Virus genome (UHGV): UHGV-1345802
DNA from: a virus
DNA length: 14,708 nucleotides
Direction: 5' to 3' (one strand)
The notes below the pieces were generated by a model. It searched no databases and was not told the origin of the DNA. It worked only from the letters and a program-made list of their open reading frames with translations. The stretch's first letter is position 1. The number at the start of each line of letters is the position of its first letter. Positions 5,058 through 10,710 of this stretch are shown in pieces. A program made the position numbers and the translations under genes.

Positions 5058-6041
5058 TCACCCCCTGAATCCTGTCGGGATCTGGCTGTAGTCCACGTTG
5101 TCGTAACTGGCTTTGAAGTACGGGTCCTCGCGTCTGGCTGCAGATACCGCAGGAACTTCCCAGGATTCTTCGAAATGACGATCCGGACCAAAGAACGTGA
5201 CAGCCTGTTTCACAAATTGTGTGCCGCTATTGCCCATCGCAGATACCCAGCCCGCGTAGCGTTTCACACCTTCCAGCATGGTTTCGGGGTTTACCCCCTC
5301 GTTCAAACGGGCTTTCCAGGCTTTGAAGGCTGCTGATTTTGAATTGCCACCAGCACGTTTGGGATATTCCTGCCAGGCCTGTTCAAATTCCGGTGAATAT
5401 TCCTGTCGGGCAGAACGCGCTGGCGCAGACGCGTCAGCGGATGCATCAATAGTGTTTTTAGTCTCCGTTGTAATCTCTGTAGTAATCTCTGTATTTGTAT
5501 CAACATTCGGCGTATCCCCTGTTCCGTTATGACGTCGGGGGGTGTTCCGTTTTAACGTAATAGCTGTATCGCTGATTGCATTATTGCTGTTACTTTCTGG
5601 CGAAACAGAAGAAGGTGTGGTGATGGCCGCAATTGCCTGTGGGTTGATCCCGACAAACAAAATATTGCTGCATTTCACCCCATCGAGCATTTCCACCGTG
5701 CGTAAATCCAGAGTAATAAACCCTGCATCGCGCAGACGCTTCAGCGCATCTGCGGTTTCCCTTTTCCCGAAACCAAACTGCTCAGCAAACGCCTGGTAGC
5801 TTCTTTGCAGTTTGTCGCCCTGAAAACGCTTGCGATATCCCAGCAACGCTCCGGTGTGCTCATCCCTGACCTCTGTCGGGCGGTACCAGTAAACGATCTC
5901 TGAAAGCAGAGCGATAGCCGTCGCATCCGGACGCCCACTGGGTAGTCGAATATATTTCCACCAGGTCGCAGGTGTAACATTGCCGGAAATATTAATTTGA
6001 CCAATAGCCATAACTTCCGGTGTGGGGGCGTAACGGCTCAT
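5058..6041 (-). CDS. Phage replication initiator-like protein (O-position; replisome organiser-like)
   Basis: 327 aa; ATG at 6041 preceded by a strong AGGAGG. It sits between the cro/CII-position genes and the nin-like region, has a Thr/Glu-rich linker encoded by a tandem DNA repeat, and a C-terminal region reminiscent of primosomal or replication proteins. Family assignment is from memory only. Confidence 0.6.
   Translation of the reverse strand: MSRYAPTPEVMAIGQINISGNVTPATWWKYIRLPSGRPDATAIALLSEIVYWYRPTEVRDEHTGALLGYRKRFQGDKLQRSYQAFAEQFGFGKRETADALKRLRDAGFITLDLRTVEMLDGVKCSNILFVGINPQAIAAITTPSSVSPESNSNNAISDTAITLKRNTPRRHNGTGDTPNVDTNTEITTEITTETKNTIDASADASAPARSARQEYSPEFEQAWQEYPKRAGGNSKSAAFKAWKARLNEGVNPETMLEGVKRYAGWVSAMGNSGTQFVKQAVTFFGPDRHFEESWEVPAVSAARREDPYFKASYDNVDYSQIPTGFRG
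5470..5493. repeat. Perfect 12-bp tandem repeat (GTAATCTCTGTA x2) inside the replication gene; candidate iteron/ori
   Basis: Read directly from the sequence; encodes TEITTEIT on the minus strand. Degenerate copies flank it (GTTGTAATCTC, GTATTTGTATC). Confidence 0.5.
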
Positions 6042-6337
6042 ACAACCTCCTTCCGCAGCATGAGAATTGTGTAGCCACGCGCAGGTTGTAGTCTGGCTTT
6101 TGCATCAATAGTAAGCGTTGCAATTTTTCGGATATGAAGATAACCAGCTCTTTCCAGTGCCAGGGTTTCCCTGAATATCGCTTGCTTAGAACAACAGCAG
6201 AAATCAGCAAGCACCTGATGATCAATAACTCTCTCGCCTTCACCGTCTGAAGAACCCGACATCAAAACGCGCAACATAATCAGGCGCTGAATCGGGTTAT
6301 CGAAAGCACATCCGCACACAAACTGAAAACAGTTCAC
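6038..6337 (-). CDS. Small HTH / winged-helix DNA-binding protein (replication-associated position)
   Basis: GTG at 6337 overlaps the upstream stop (GTGA) and has GGGAGG 6 nt upstream. ...HQVLADFCCCSKQAIFRETLALERAGYL looks like a helix-turn-helix. Confidence 0.5.
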   Translation of the reverse strand: MNCFQFVCGCAFDNPIQRLIMLRVLMSGSSDGEGERVIDHQVLADFCCCSKQAIFRETLALERAGYLHIRKIATLTIDAKARLQPARGYTILMLRKEVV

Positions 6338-6558
6338 GCCACACCTCCCAGACGCTTAAACATTTTTCCGGAGCAAAAGGCTATAAGCGGCATACTGACG
6401 CGGTAATTACGGCCCAGCGGTTCACAAATCACCTTCTGACATTCACGGTCAACCAGGCTAACACGTAGAACATGCCCTGCAGGCGTGGTGTACCACTGAC
6501 CCGGACGAGGACAACGGAAAGTCTGATTGGTAAAACGTTTGAAAATATTCCGGATCAT
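6334..6558 (-). CDS. Hypothetical small protein (74 aa)
   Basis: ATG at 6558 with GGGGG 5 nt upstream; ATGA overlap with the Rha-gene stop, and its own stop overlaps the next start. Confidence 0.5.
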   Translation of the reverse strand: MIRNIFKRFTNQTFRCPRPGQWYTTPAGHVLRVSLVDRECQKVICEPLGRNYRVSMPLIAFCSGKMFKRLGGVA

Positions 6559-7706
6559 TTGCGCCCCCTTGCCTCTGAAGGGTTCAGCGACAAATTTATG
6601 AGGCAGGCCAGCGCCGAAGCATCATTAATATAGTCATATAAGCTAACAGCCAGCGGAGATTCGGCTTTTGCCAACATAGGATAAAGCTGCTGCAGCCAGA
6701 CCTGATGAATTGATGAAATGTAGGAACAGAGAACGCTGGCGTTATGTGCAACGTCGCTCGGTACAGCAGGCTTTGAAAGCTGTTTCTCCATCTGGTTAAA
6801 GGCATTGATGTATGCCTCTTTGAACTTGGCAGCACGTTTACCCGTGAAACCCATAGCAAGAAACGCAAAACCGTCGCGGGTGATTTGGTAACAAGGGAGT
6901 TTGCGGCCTGATGCGTCGGTGTATTCACTTAACACAAAAATGTGTTCAGTAAATTCAGCGGAACATTCGAGGTTTCTAATTCTATCTAAAACCCGCTCAT
7001 GCCGTTTAGTAAAGTAATTAGCTACTGCAAGAGATGTGGTGACAACGCGACCATTGATAATCGTGATTTCAGGGTGAGATTGGGTTGGGAGAGTAGTCAT
7101 GGTGACAGCCCCTATGTTGAATTCAATGAACTCACCACCAAGGCTTTCCACGACCATATAGGTGGTGAGACGTACAGGGGTGGAAATACCGGTCAACATA
7201 GAACCCGGCCCAACCGAAGTTGGCCCTGCACGCCCCACCATAATTTGGGCGTAACGATGCTCATGACACGAAAAAACCGCATGAGCGCGGTTGTGCTCTA
7301 TATTGAATTTCGGGTTTCCACGCCCGGCACCCGCTTTATAAGGTGCCGGAACAGTGTAACGTCCCGGAATTGCAGAATCAATATGCTGGTGTTCCTTCAC
7401 ACTCAACAAAATCACGCCTGAATTTCCACAAAGGACTAAAGCACTCATGCGGGTAGTCTTTGCGAAGATAGATAACGCGCTGTGTTTCTGGCTCCCAACG
7501 AATAACATGGACATAAAGCCCTCTTCCGTCACGAAACCAGCGGTTAAGTTCCTGCACAACTCGCCCCCCACAGTCAGGTAAAGTTCTCTGTGGTTACTTA
7601 CAGCCAGGTGATTTGGTAATCTGCATTCATGCCGTAACAACAGGTGTTCAGCGACGCTGACCACCAGCTGTTGCGACAAACGGTTATTTGCCGTTAAACT
7701 GTTCAT
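6555..7706 (-). CDS. Rha-family phage regulatory protein with an unexplained ~200-aa N-terminal extension (possible fusion or two genes)
   Basis: Residues from the internal Met at 7100 (MTTLPTQSHPEITIINGRVVTTSLAVANYFTKRHERVLDRIRNL...) look like the Rha (pRha) domain. The frame is open upstream to an ATG at 7706 that overlaps the preceding stop (ATGA). The N-terminal 202 aa match no family I recognise. Confidence 0.6.
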   Translation of the reverse strand: MNSLTANNRLSQQLVVSVAEHLLLRHECRLPNHLAVSNHRELYLTVGGELCRNLTAGFVTEEGFMSMLFVGSQKHSALSIFAKTTRMSALVLCGNSGVILLSVKEHQHIDSAIPGRYTVPAPYKAGAGRGNPKFNIEHNRAHAVFSCHEHRYAQIMVGRAGPTSVGPGSMLTGISTPVRLTTYMVVESLGGEFIEFNIGAVTMTTLPTQSHPEITIINGRVVTTSLAVANYFTKRHERVLDRIRNLECSAEFTEHIFVLSEYTDASGRKLPCYQITRDGFAFLAMGFTGKRAAKFKEAYINAFNQMEKQLSKPAVPSDVAHNASVLCSYISSIHQVWLQQLYPMLAKAESPLAVSLYDYINDASALACLINLSLNPSEARGRK

Positions 7707-8587: not shown

Positions 8588-8649
8588 CCTCTGAAATTCA
8601 GAGGGATAATGCTACTTAAAATAGCAAATTGCAACTACTTAAAATAGAA
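8588..8649. promoter_or_regulatory. oR/pR-pRM divergent control region
   Basis: Candidate pR on the minus strand: -35 TTGCAA (8629-8634), 17-nt spacer, -10 CATTAT (complement of 8606-8611). Repeated CTACTTAAAATAG at 8612-8624 and 8635-8647. A 17-bp perfect palindrome CCTCTGAAATTCAGAGG (8588-8604) lies between the -10 and the cro Shine-Dalgarno. Confidence 0.55.
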
Positions 8650-9390
8650 ATGACTAGCGCGTGCGATGTGAGTAATCTTCTACCTATGGTAGAAGAACAG
8701 AAGTATCCAGATTTCGCCAAGAGACTAAACGAATTGATGACAATCAAAGGAATCTCTGTCACTCAACTCAAAAGTCTTGTGGGCGTTACATATGAAATGG
8801 CTCGTCGATACACAATCGGCGCAGCGAAGCCACGTGTCTCTGTCATGAGTAAACTTGCGTTGGCTCTTGGAGTATCAGCTTCATATCTAGAATATGGTGT
8901 TGGAGATAGAGAGGAATGTAAGGAAATGGCAAGCATCCCCAATCCAACAAAGCCCGATGTATACAGGATAGAAGTTTTGGATCTTAGCGTTAGCGCAGGA
9001 CCTGGGACCTATATGCTTTCAGACTATGTTGATGTGCTCTACGCCATTGAGTTCACAACTGAACATGCCCGTTCTCTTTTCGGAAACCGTTCTCAGAATG
9101 ATATAAAAGTTATGACGGTAAATGGAGATAGTATGTCCCCAACTCTTGTTTCCGGGGATCGATTGTTTGTCGACATTTCCGTTCGCCACTTCCAGACTGA
9201 TGGAGTTTACTCTTTCGTTTACGGTAAGACTTTCCATGTTAAACGTCTACAAATGCAAGGCAACAAACTAGCTGTTCTTTCGGATAACCCCGCCTATGAG
9301 AAATGGTACATTGATGAGAAGTCGCAAGATCAGCTTTATGTTATGGGTAAGGCACTGATTCATGAGTCGATTAAATATAATCGACTTTAA
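8650..9390 (+). CDS. cI: cI-type prophage repressor (HTH_XRE + S24 LexA-like peptidase)
   Basis: N-terminal HTH (LNELMTIKGISVTQLKSLVGVTYEMARRY) and a C-terminal S24 domain with GDSMSPTL and a downstream Lys (HVKRLQ). The start has no Shine-Dalgarno (ATG 8650 or ATG 8686; track start TTG 8629), consistent with a leaderless cI message. Confidence 0.85.
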   Translation: MTSACDVSNLLPMVEEQKYPDFAKRLNELMTIKGISVTQLKSLVGVTYEMARRYTIGAAKPRVSVMSKLALALGVSASYLEYGVGDREECKEMASIPNPTKPDVYRIEVLDLSVSAGPGTYMLSDYVDVLYAIEFTTEHARSLFGNRSQNDIKVMTVNGDSMSPTLVSGDRLFVDISVRHFQTDGVYSFVYGKTFHVKRLQMQGNKLAVLSDNPAYEKWYIDEKSQDQLYVMGKALIHESIKYNRL

Positions 9391-9624
9391 TTAGGCATCT
9401 AGCAATCGTTAAAGCAAACGAGCACAGATGATAAAAGATAAGGATAGAAAATCTTTATACAAATTTTATTTGGCACATTGGTCCATAAAAATGGATTAAC
9501 ACTGAGCTGTTACCCTAAGTAAGAAAAGATAAAGACCATATGTTATCTTTGGGTGCGTTACTAACACAAAAAAAACCAAAATAAAACATAAATAATAGAC
9601 AATTCTATACAACAGGATACGATA

Positions 9625-10710
9625 ATGATTAATGAACGTACTGAAGCGACAGATGGGGTAGCAGATATGATTTCCACCAATACAAAATATTTAGTATGGA
9701 ACAACAAAGGTGGTGTAGGAAAAACTTTTCTTACATATAATCTTGCCGTTGAGTTTGCTATATCTCATCCGGATCAAGATGTTGTGGTTATTGACTCATG
9801 CCCTCAATCAAACGTTTCAGAAATTATTCTTGGTGGCAATGGTACCGGGGAAGAAAATCTAAATAAATTGCGAGACAGAAATGTTACAATCGCAGGTTAT
9901 ATCAAGGAGCGTTTTAGCAAATCTCCTTTGTCTCGTTTAGGAAATGAATCTTCTTACTTTGTACGAGCCCATGATGTTAATGCAAAAATGCCAGAGAACT
10001 TATATATTCTTCCTGGTGATGTCGATCTTGATATCTGTTCACGCTTAATATCTCACATTGGCTCATCCCCAGTAAAAGAAGCATGGAAGAAAAGCCGATC
10101 TTTGCTGGTAGATCTAATAGCATCTTTTGAAGCCGATAAAAACATTTCTGACAGAGCAAAAACATTTTTTATTGATTGTAATCCAAGTTTTGCCAGCTAC
10201 ACAGAATTGGGAGTAGTCGCGGCAAATAGAATAATTATCCCTTGCACTGCCGATGCTGCATCAATTCGCGGAATAAAAAACCTTGTTAAACTTATTTATG
10301 GAGTGTCTATTGACAAGTCAGAACAAGATGAAATGTTCTTAGATTTCAACAAAGAAGCAAAGCAAAACCTTATCGAACTACCTGAACTACACCTTTTCGT
10401 ACAAAACCGCTCAAGAACTAATGAAAGTGATGCAGCAAAAGCATTCAAATCACATGCAGAAGAGATCAAAAGAATCACGGATGACCTGTTAAATACACAT
10501 CCTCATCTGTTCACAAATGTGGCTACTTTCGAGAGAGTTCAAAATGTCAAAGATGGTAATACTCTTGCAGCAATAATAAACCATGAGGGATGCCCTTTAA
10601 GTAGGCTGCAGCATAAGAGTTACACTATCTATGGTATGGCGACCCAAGCTAATAGAGCACAAATTGAAGCACTAGAATCTGATGTTTCAACAGTAGTCAA
10701 GTGTCTGTAA
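9625..10710 (+). CDS. Orphan ParA/MinD-family P-loop ATPase in the rex-equivalent position (candidate superinfection-exclusion or defence moron)
   Basis: Deviant Walker A NNKGGVGKT, then IDSCPQSN and FFIDCNPSF...IIIPCTADAASIRG matching ParA/Soj motifs; 361 aa with a long C-terminal extension. The gene and flanks are visibly AT-rich, and no ParB-like partner was seen. ATG at 9625 (AGGAT upstream); alternative ATG at 9670. Confidence 0.75.
   Translation: MINERTEATDGVADMISTNTKYLVWNNKGGVGKTFLTYNLAVEFAISHPDQDVVVIDSCPQSNVSEIILGGNGTGEENLNKLRDRNVTIAGYIKERFSKSPLSRLGNESSYFVRAHDVNAKMPENLYILPGDVDLDICSRLISHIGSSPVKEAWKKSRSLLVDLIASFEADKNISDRAKTFFIDCNPSFASYTELGVVAANRIIIPCTADAASIRGIKNLVKLIYGVSIDKSEQDEMFLDFNKEAKQNLIELPELHLFVQNRSRTNESDAAKAFKSHAEEIKRITDDLLNTHPHLFTNVATFERVQNVKDGNTLAAIINHEGCPLSRLQHKSYTIYGMATQANRAQIEALESDVSTVVKCL

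Follow-up and report, generated by a model that had tools for sequence, protein, structure and literature searches.

A tandem 12-bp repeat inside the replication initiator gene of a lambdoid prophage is conserved as DNA across phyla and probably belongs to an intragenic origin

The 14,708-nucleotide virus genome UHGV-1345802 (the whole stretch is called the window here) represents the immunity and early region of an Escherichia coli lambdoid prophage and is 100% identical to strain 2015C-3121. Its minus strand carries a gene for a replication initiator of 327 amino acids (aa), the sole replication gene of the early-right operon. Inside this gene a first-pass annotation, made from the sequence alone, had noticed a tandem 12-bp repeat and had suggested that it might represent origin iterons. 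The parts of the gene and its two sets of repeats, named A and B, are listed below.

5058-6041, minus strand: replication initiator gene, 327 aa
5610-6041, minus strand: N-terminal winged-helix domain, aa 1-144, 'type 1'
5406-5609, minus strand: linker-coding region, aa 145-212, predicted to be disordered; holds all A and B repeats
5061-5405, minus strand: C-terminal helical module, aa 213-327, exchanged as a mosaic unit of its own, with PHROG matches
5546-5559, minus strand: B1, candidate initiator iteron TACGTTAAAACGGA, one mismatch to TACR-N6-YGTA; direct repeat D1, spacing 23
5523-5536, minus strand: B2, second copy GACGTCATAACGGA, in a frame that differs from that of B1
5501-5514, minus strand: B3, degenerate third copy TACGCCGAATGTTG, 22 bp after B2 and the weakest of the three
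5482-5493, minus strand: A1, 12-mer TACAGAGATTAC, exact consensus
5470-5481, minus strand: A2, 12-mer TACAGAGATTAC, exact consensus
5458-5469, minus strand: A3, degenerate in-register 12-mer AACGGAGACTAA, from Tandem Repeats Finder (2.7 copies) and sequence reading
5440-5499, no strand: GC minimum of the gene (lowest 60 bp, 33% GC), candidate unwinding region in which the A array and its tail lie

On the plus strand, GTAATCTCTGTA is found at both 5470-5481 and 5482-5493, so that reading the sequence confirmed the perfect tandem duplication at 5470-5493. Tandem Repeats Finder likewise reported it, as a repeat of period 12 at 5462-5493 with 2.7 copies and 90% matches. The unit on the coding (minus) strand is TACAGAGATTAC and the encoded peptide is TNTEITTEITTETKNT (aa 182-197). 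Degenerate copies had been proposed on both sides of the pair. On the low-coordinate side a third unit at 5458-5469 (ACGGAGACTAA) indeed fits 9/11 positions of ACAGAGAnTAC, but the high-coordinate flank at 5494-5505 holds no convincing copy of the 12-mer (5/12). The window contains no other perfect tandem duplication with a period of 9-15. About 6% of 1000 first-order Markov simulations held at least one perfect duplication of any period in this range, and by our own arithmetic the expected count for period 12 alone is roughly 1e-3 (~14,700 x 4^-12). Judged from the window alone, the repeat is only moderately improbable by chance; it is the comparison with other genomes, and not the statistics of the window, that excludes a chance origin.

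In the direction of transcription, the GC minimum comes immediately after B3. An AT-rich segment is thus present as anticipated, although it does not lie next to the array, since the array itself occupies it. Because the A array falls within the most AT-rich stretch of the gene, it takes the place that the AT-rich region has in lambda.

The initiator matches phrog_270 'replication initiation protein' (E 8.5e-76), and its C-terminal half matches phrog_1701 'DnaD-like helicase loader' and phrog_9327 'primosomal protein'. Two 'O-like' PHROG families gave weak matches (phrog_391, E 9e-8; phrog_678, E 6e-5). Scans against Pfam and NCBIfam assigned the protein to no family and returned sub-threshold helix-turn-helix (HTH) matches alone. 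The lambda O family of Pfam, Phage_rep_O, did not match the N-domain even at E values up to 1, and a profile search of PDB sequences with the initiator gave nothing meaningful. An AlphaFold2 model built with 26 homologues has folded domains at aa 1-144 and 213-300. The N-domain (predicted local distance difference test, pLDDT, 73-95) is modelled as a helix, a beta-hairpin, an HTH and a wing. When it was compared to the PDB with Foldseek, only generic winged-helix matches were obtained (TFIIE-alpha, MarR, CodY and DnaD-N 2v79, with weak E values of ~1e-2), and aa 78-112 gave weak matches to HTH_36, GntR and Cdc6_C. This domain is a candidate origin-recognition module, and the C-terminal module is presumed to recruit the helicase or its loader. 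Between the two, aa 145-212 have a pLDDT of ~31. The repeats at 5458-5559 map to aa 161-195, and the 12-mer pair therefore encodes a piece of the disordered linker. Together with the phrog_270 match, this bears out the proposed location in the linker-coding part of a replication initiator, as with the lambda origin.

To compare the repeat with that of relatives, 80 loci were fetched from one-genome-per-species contigs by peptide patterns inside the N-domain only, which makes the set unbiased with respect to the repeat. The loci came from Enterobacterales, Marinomonas, Acinetobacter, Bacillota (Bacillus, Lachnospiraceae and Syntrophomonas), Herpetosiphon, Rickettsiales, Desulfosarcina, Thiomargarita and others. 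At the equivalent place in the homologous initiator genes of many phyla, a consensus unit ACAGAGAnTACT (peptide T-E-x-T) recurs with a period of 12 in 1-6 copies, in genes whose GC content ranges from 28 to 55%. Proteins that are homologous over N-domain and linker keep the peptide T[NY]TE[INT]TTE[INT]TTE even where their identity is 40-50%, always at the close of the N-terminal module, and the C-termini beyond it vary. The DNA beneath the peptide is near-identical in these loci (ACR-WAT-ACA-GAG-AnT-ACT-ACA-GAG-AnT-ACT). When we searched for TACAGAGANTAC with at most one mismatch, 136 copies were found on the coding strand at +300 to +900, and 66/80 loci have it. The remaining sequence of these loci contains 8, so that the enrichment is 322-fold. 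Those 8 copies in ~0.9 Mb compare with a rough chance expectation of ~7, and a second origin formed by 12-mers outside the gene was therefore rejected.

Codon usage was counted in 54 genes that had been chosen by the peptide motif alone. Within the motif, glutamate is encoded by GAG 91 times and by GAA 3 times, versus 578 and 969 times in the remainder of the same genes (Fisher p 2e-33). Similarly, 283/318 threonine codons of the motif are ACA or ACT and only 5/318 are ACC, which accounts for 344/1301 threonine codons elsewhere in the genes. Information content was compared in 49 dereplicated sequences. It amounts to 1.0-1.5 bits at the third codon positions of the array (for instance T in 45/49 sequences). 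At fourfold-degenerate third positions that belong to conserved N-domain residues in these genes it is 0.02-0.3 bits, which means that these positions are saturated. Within the 12-mer just one base is free; it is the second base of a codon, and its changes switch between Ile, Thr and Asn. Conserved third positions together with a free second position are the reverse of what selection on a peptide produces. By these sequence comparisons, the 12-mer array is under selection as DNA rather than as peptide.

The first-pass annotation had proposed to compare copy numbers among related prophages. The number does vary: 1-3 units are found in close relatives from E. coli and Shigella, and 1-6 in the family as a whole, where 3 is the commonest number. 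It had also named absence of the repeats from functional relatives as an argument against an origin. The array was present in 4/4 isolated plaque-forming phages that were checked, Geobacillus PT9.1, Acinetobacter IME-AB2, Bacillus 0105phi7-2 and Bacillus PM1, each with 2-3 units at the equivalent place, and this argument therefore fails. In all four, genes annotated as or presumed to be loader or helicase genes follow that of the initiator. Among plasmids, the 16-kb Vagococcus plasmid pBN31-16k carries the array and the Protochlamydia plasmid pPNK a single unit, while a 'DnaA-like' protein of a Megaira plasmid with a C-terminal DnaA_N has none. When DNA and peptide strings of the motif (ACAGAGATTAC, TACAGAGAATAC, GTAATCTCTGTA, TEITTEITTE, TEITTE and TENTTE) were searched in open-access full text, only unrelated primer matches were obtained. 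Neither the family nor the motif is described in a paper on the replication region of Stx phages (PMC8044961) or in one on phage B83 (PMC6669507).

An exact scan of IMG/VR for the tandem 24-mer found at least 120 viral contigs, a sample which is biased as it was selected by the motif itself. Among the matches listed, the array is in the T-E-x-T frame in 120/120. In nearly all of these it lies ~125-320 aa into an initiator-like open reading frame (ORF) of 270-490 aa, and a few ORFs are truncated or frameshifted. A hidden Markov model of the N-domain of the window matched 69 of the 120 listed ORFs, and the rest carry other types of N-domain. At least three N-domain types precede the array. They are remote homologues according to hhalign (probabilities 86%, 66% and 96%) and have an L-SQ-IYW helix and the HTH in common; none of them is in Pfam. 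The C-terminal modules of the family comprise DnaB_2 (DnaD-like), Phg_2220_C, a lambda-O-like C-domain, DnaA_N, DUF6017 and the module of the window itself, and they are swapped freely.

The sequence just upstream of the array is repetitive as well. In 175/206 loci a 14-mer (at least 12/14 identical) recurs there with a spacing of 22-23 or 44-46 bp. These upstream repeats differ by N-domain type, and several are dyad-symmetric (e.g. TACG-N6-CGTA, GGTCAAAATGACC and the lambda-like CCCGAAACGGGG). Type 1 loci have TACR-N6-YGTA palindromes. Within the 160 nt that precede the array these are enriched 92-fold, and their positions are phased at about -22, -44, -66, -88, -111 and -133. Type 2 loci have GGCGGAAAGCGCC or the lambda-like CCCGAAACGGGG, and type 3 loci have GGTCAAAATGACC. 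In the window, B1 and B2 are 14/16 identical at a spacing of 23 and encode TLKRNT and RRHNGT, respectively. Being read in different frames, they are repeats of DNA and not of peptide. The ACGCCGAATGT form of B3 also precedes the array in three Lachnospiraceae loci (L059, L061 and L068). We observed a related arrangement in a Staphylococcus aureus phage: the 'DnaD-like helicase loader' of phage 96 (L216 ~1620-1740) has a type 3 N-domain, and its gene holds three GGACAAAATGGCCC-like repeats with ~22-bp spacing, then a degenerate 12-mer array ACCATAGACTACACAGAGACTAAC.

The array also marks a boundary between gene segments of different descent. The C-terminal module of the window has 93% nucleotide identity to SfV orf39, mEp460 and Stx phages, and this identity stops at window position 5452. 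The 'O' gene of the Stx1a phage Stx1_699, which encodes a type 2 N-domain and carries lambda-like iterons (CCCGAAATGGGGAAA), shows nucleotide identity to the window over a stretch that sets in exactly at the 12-mer array and extends through the C-domain (L219 1300-1820 versus window 5150-5620). This start of identity indicates that the array is a mosaic recombination joint.

Since the array lies beside type-specific repeats, it is most likely a core part of an origin that is embedded in the gene. We have high confidence in the broader reading, in which the 12-mer repeat functions as DNA and forms part of an intragenic origin. Its base-by-base conservation, beyond mere AT-richness, argues that the array would be read sequence-specifically. 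From the layout, which matches that of the lambda origin, we read the 12-mers as a shared origin core that probably serves as an unwinding or helicase-entry element, and their reader would most likely be a conserved surface of the initiator superfamily that acts on single- or double-stranded DNA. A by-eye comparison of the motif with the DnaA box, the IHF site and the CTG site of primase revealed no convincing match. The mechanism that we propose in particular is one to which we give an even chance. In this scheme, the winged-helix N-domain would bind the type-specific 22-23 bp repeats just upstream (5501-5559). The resulting nucleoprotein complex would open the adjacent A array (5458-5493 and its A/T-rich tail), which is the least stable stretch of the gene, and the exchangeable C-terminal domain would then recruit the helicase or its loader.

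Several observations weigh against this interpretation. The array is only moderately AT-rich (67% A+T), and in low-GC hosts it does not exceed its surroundings in A+T, so easy melting alone is insufficient to account for its conservation. An element that merely melts should drift; the array does not, and some candidate reader must be assumed. The upstream repeats of the window are few (two good and one poor) and deviate from the consensus of the family. Moreover, the array is absent from 14/80 loci and from the Megaira plasmid protein. As it always lies in one reading frame, a contribution of the peptide may add to that of the DNA.

The 12-mers might instead be classical iterons, each double-stranded unit being bound head to tail by the N-domain so that the array itself nucleates the initiation complex. 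This was the suggestion of the first-pass annotation, and direct repeats within an initiator gene, constraint at the DNA level and a constant association in cis with a winged-helix N-domain would all fit it. In our own reading, the TACR-N6-YGTA palindrome and the 12-mer both begin with TACA or TACG and might share a half-site. However, the same 12-mer stands behind at least three remote N-domain types, whose HTH recognition helices differ and each of which has its own, unrelated 22-23 bp repeats upstream. In addition, a head-to-tail period of 12 bp puts successive sites on different faces of the helix, while 22-23 bp fits the usual iteron period. We had regarded the 12-mer as the specific binding site of the N-domain family of the window, and revised this when the scan of viral contigs found the array behind other N-domain types. 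As the 12-mers are common to types that differ in their own repeats, the 22-23 bp repeats are the better candidates for initiator-specific iterons, and we consider classical iterons of 12 bp unlikely, albeit the most serious of the competing explanations. If the array were kept as a recombination joint, for homologous swapping of origin-recognition and helicase-recruitment modules, one would expect what was seen in Stx1_699, where the N-domain type is different and identity sets in exactly with the A array, as well as the end of SfV-type identity just beside it (5452) and the many C-terminal modules behind one and the same array. Yet second-order selection would then have to keep ~24-36 bp constant across phyla that do not exchange these genes, between two flanks whose divergence is saturated. 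It is simpler to regard the joint as the result of a conserved functional element than as its cause, and we find a purely recombinational role improbable.

An action of the array as RNA or as a regulator (operator, autoregulation of the initiator, R-loop priming or translational pausing) would agree with its being always transcribed and always in the same frame, and the lambda origin is known to require transcriptional activation (PMC7466680). But we detected nothing specific to RNA: at the locus there is no Rfam family (the only Rfam matches of the window lie at 7158-7346), no stable single-strand fold of the region (z 0.10) and no promoter-like site. We therefore rate this possibility somewhat lower still. 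The first-pass annotation had itself offered a plain slippage duplication of a Thr/Glu-rich (TEIT) peptide linker, without any function of the DNA, as the alternative. Slippage does change the copy number: close E. coli relatives are polymorphic at this place (TEITTETK, TEITTEITTETK and TEITTEITTEITTEAK), and the peptide lies in the disordered linker. It leaves the existence of the array unexplained, however, as each synonymous position is conserved across phyla and the position that changes the amino acid is free. Recent horizontal copies, which could mimic such conservation, are disfavoured by flanks that have diverged to saturation. Slippage as the whole explanation is, in our opinion, very improbable.

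Around the initiator gene the window has the organization of a lambdoid early region, which includes the following gene.

8629-9390, plus strand: cI-like repressor gene

The minus-strand genes are, in order, cro-like, cII-like, a Rha/Ash-type regulator, two small ORFs, the initiator, PerC, Dam, repressor-like, RusA and a Q-like antiterminator. Neither a P-like loader gene nor a helicase gene comes after that of the initiator here. In two E. coli relatives, L087 and L088, a gene for an 'ATP-binding protein', possibly a DnaC-like loader, stands after the initiator gene where the window has PerC and Dam. The final ~30 codons of the initiator also differ between the window and these two relatives, which marks a second mosaic joint near window position 5157. 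Upstream, a 99-aa ORF (6038-6337, minus strand) overlaps the start codon of the initiator gene. Its product resembles phrog_4617 'replication initiation protein' over the N-terminal part of that family (E 4e-29), and the ORF is kept in L087 and L088 as well. Further upstream, Rfam matches to C4 antisense RNA (7158-7245, minus strand, 82 bits) and isrK (7270-7346, minus strand, 62 bits) fall within a mechanically called ORF of 383 aa (6555-7706) that bears Pfam Phage_ASH and Phage_pRha. The region looks like the anti-repressor module of P1/P7-type immI (c4-ant), and the true protein-coding gene within this ORF probably starts downstream of the two RNAs. Directly adjoining the cI-like repressor gene, a gene for a ParA-like partition ATPase (9625-10710, plus strand) was found, which is unusual in an integrated lambdoid prophage. 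It is preceded at 9563-9595 by three copies of an 11-bp repeat, AACAAAAATAA, which could be a partition or operator site.

Intragenic origins in initiator genes are textbook knowledge for lambda and SPP1, and the repeats of such an origin are regarded as specific to its own initiator. In the present case a 12-bp unit stays constant, even at synonymous sites, among phyla and among types of initiator with differing iterons. If it is an origin core, (ACAGAGAnTACT)n in the frame T-E-x-T would be a one-line signature for the origins of thousands of unannotated phages, prophages and plasmids. It would also define a large superfamily of initiators for which neither Pfam nor NCBIfam has a model, explain where the mosaic joint lies in these genes, and raise the sharp question of what reads the ACAGAGAnTACT sequence. 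The 'low-complexity linker' also illustrates clearly how DNA can impose conservation on a peptide. More tentatively, one may go further and regard the ACAGAGAnTACT arrays as the universal origin core of a large, unnamed superfamily of winged-helix initiators, which would serve phages, prophages and plasmids of Proteobacteria, Bacillota, Chloroflexota, Rickettsiales, Desulfobacterota and others. The reader would then be a conserved surface of the initiator or a universal replisome factor, and the array would be both the mobile-element counterpart of the 13-mers and DnaA-trios of oriC and a fixed joint for the shuffling of recognition and recruitment modules. We see this broadest version as possible, though less probable than not only the origin function as such but also the mechanism set out above.

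The AT-rich 13-mers of E. coli oriC and the DnaA-trios are unwinding elements which DnaA reads as single strands. By analogy, the A array would resemble them as short tandem units beside the double-strand sites of the initiator, whose sequence is kept since the initiator reads them. The systems differ in the initiator (the AAA+ protein DnaA versus a winged helix with a linker) and in sequence, and the 12-mers of the window are coding. Plasmid iteron origins, which are usually intergenic, have ~22-bp iterons bound by winged-helix initiators of the RepA or pi type. The family of the window shares with them direct repeats with a period of 22-23 bp and winged-helix initiators, and it serves plasmids too. 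We know of no counterpart of the additional, universal 12-mer array in plasmid iteron origins.

In lambda, four dyad-symmetric iterons and then an AT-rich region lie in the middle of gene O, and the O protein has been reported to bind A/T-rich single-stranded DNA (PMC7466680). Like the lambda origin, the repeats of the window lie in the middle of the initiator gene, where it encodes the linker that joins a DNA-binding N-domain to a C-domain for recruitment of helicase or loader. In the family of the window, dyad-symmetric repeats about two helical turns apart are likewise followed by an A/T-rich element downstream in the direction of transcription, and some array-bearing relatives (L176 and L116) have a lambda-O-like C-domain. 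Unlike lambda, the window has an N-domain without a Phage_rep_O match, only 2-3 upstream repeats of a different sequence and no P-like gene that follows, and the AT-rich region of lambda does not consist of exact 12-mers. The tail of the array at 5448-5466 (GGAGACTAAAAACACTATT, peptide ETKNTI) matches the start of the AT-rich region of the lambda origin (39117-39135, L215 518-536; GGACACAAAAGACACTATT, peptide DTKDTI) at 16/19 positions, a single weak comparison with a shuffle p of ~0.0075. This likeness may have been left from an ancestor common to both origin cores, or it may be due to chance.

The SPP1 initiator G38P binds oriL at direct repeats within its own gene, gene 38, beside an AT-rich unwinding element (PMC6316719). 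There too the repeats lie in the linker-coding region of the initiator gene. Relatives of the N-domain of the window are fused to Phg_2220_C, as in G38P, and genes for a G39P-like loader and a DnaB-like helicase then follow. The sequences of the repeats in the window differ from those of SPP1, its C-domain has no Pfam match (no Phg_2220_C), and PerC and Dam follow in place of loader and helicase genes. No kinship of the N-domains was detected, as hhalign of the family alignment of the window N-domain with SPP1 gene 38 aligned a C-terminal stretch alone, with a probability of 0.3%.

A parallel in layout is offered by orf39 of SfV (L086), which shares the C-domain of the window (93% nucleotide identity) but has a different N-domain, of the HTH_36/DnaD_N type. 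Its linker holds an array of its own, with 4.6 copies of a 24-bp unit (L086 1950-2054), and then 2.6 copies of a different 12-bp repeat (L086 1900-1930, peptide EPVKEPVNEP). The arrangement of iterons followed by 12-mers thus recurs in SfV with unrelated sequences.

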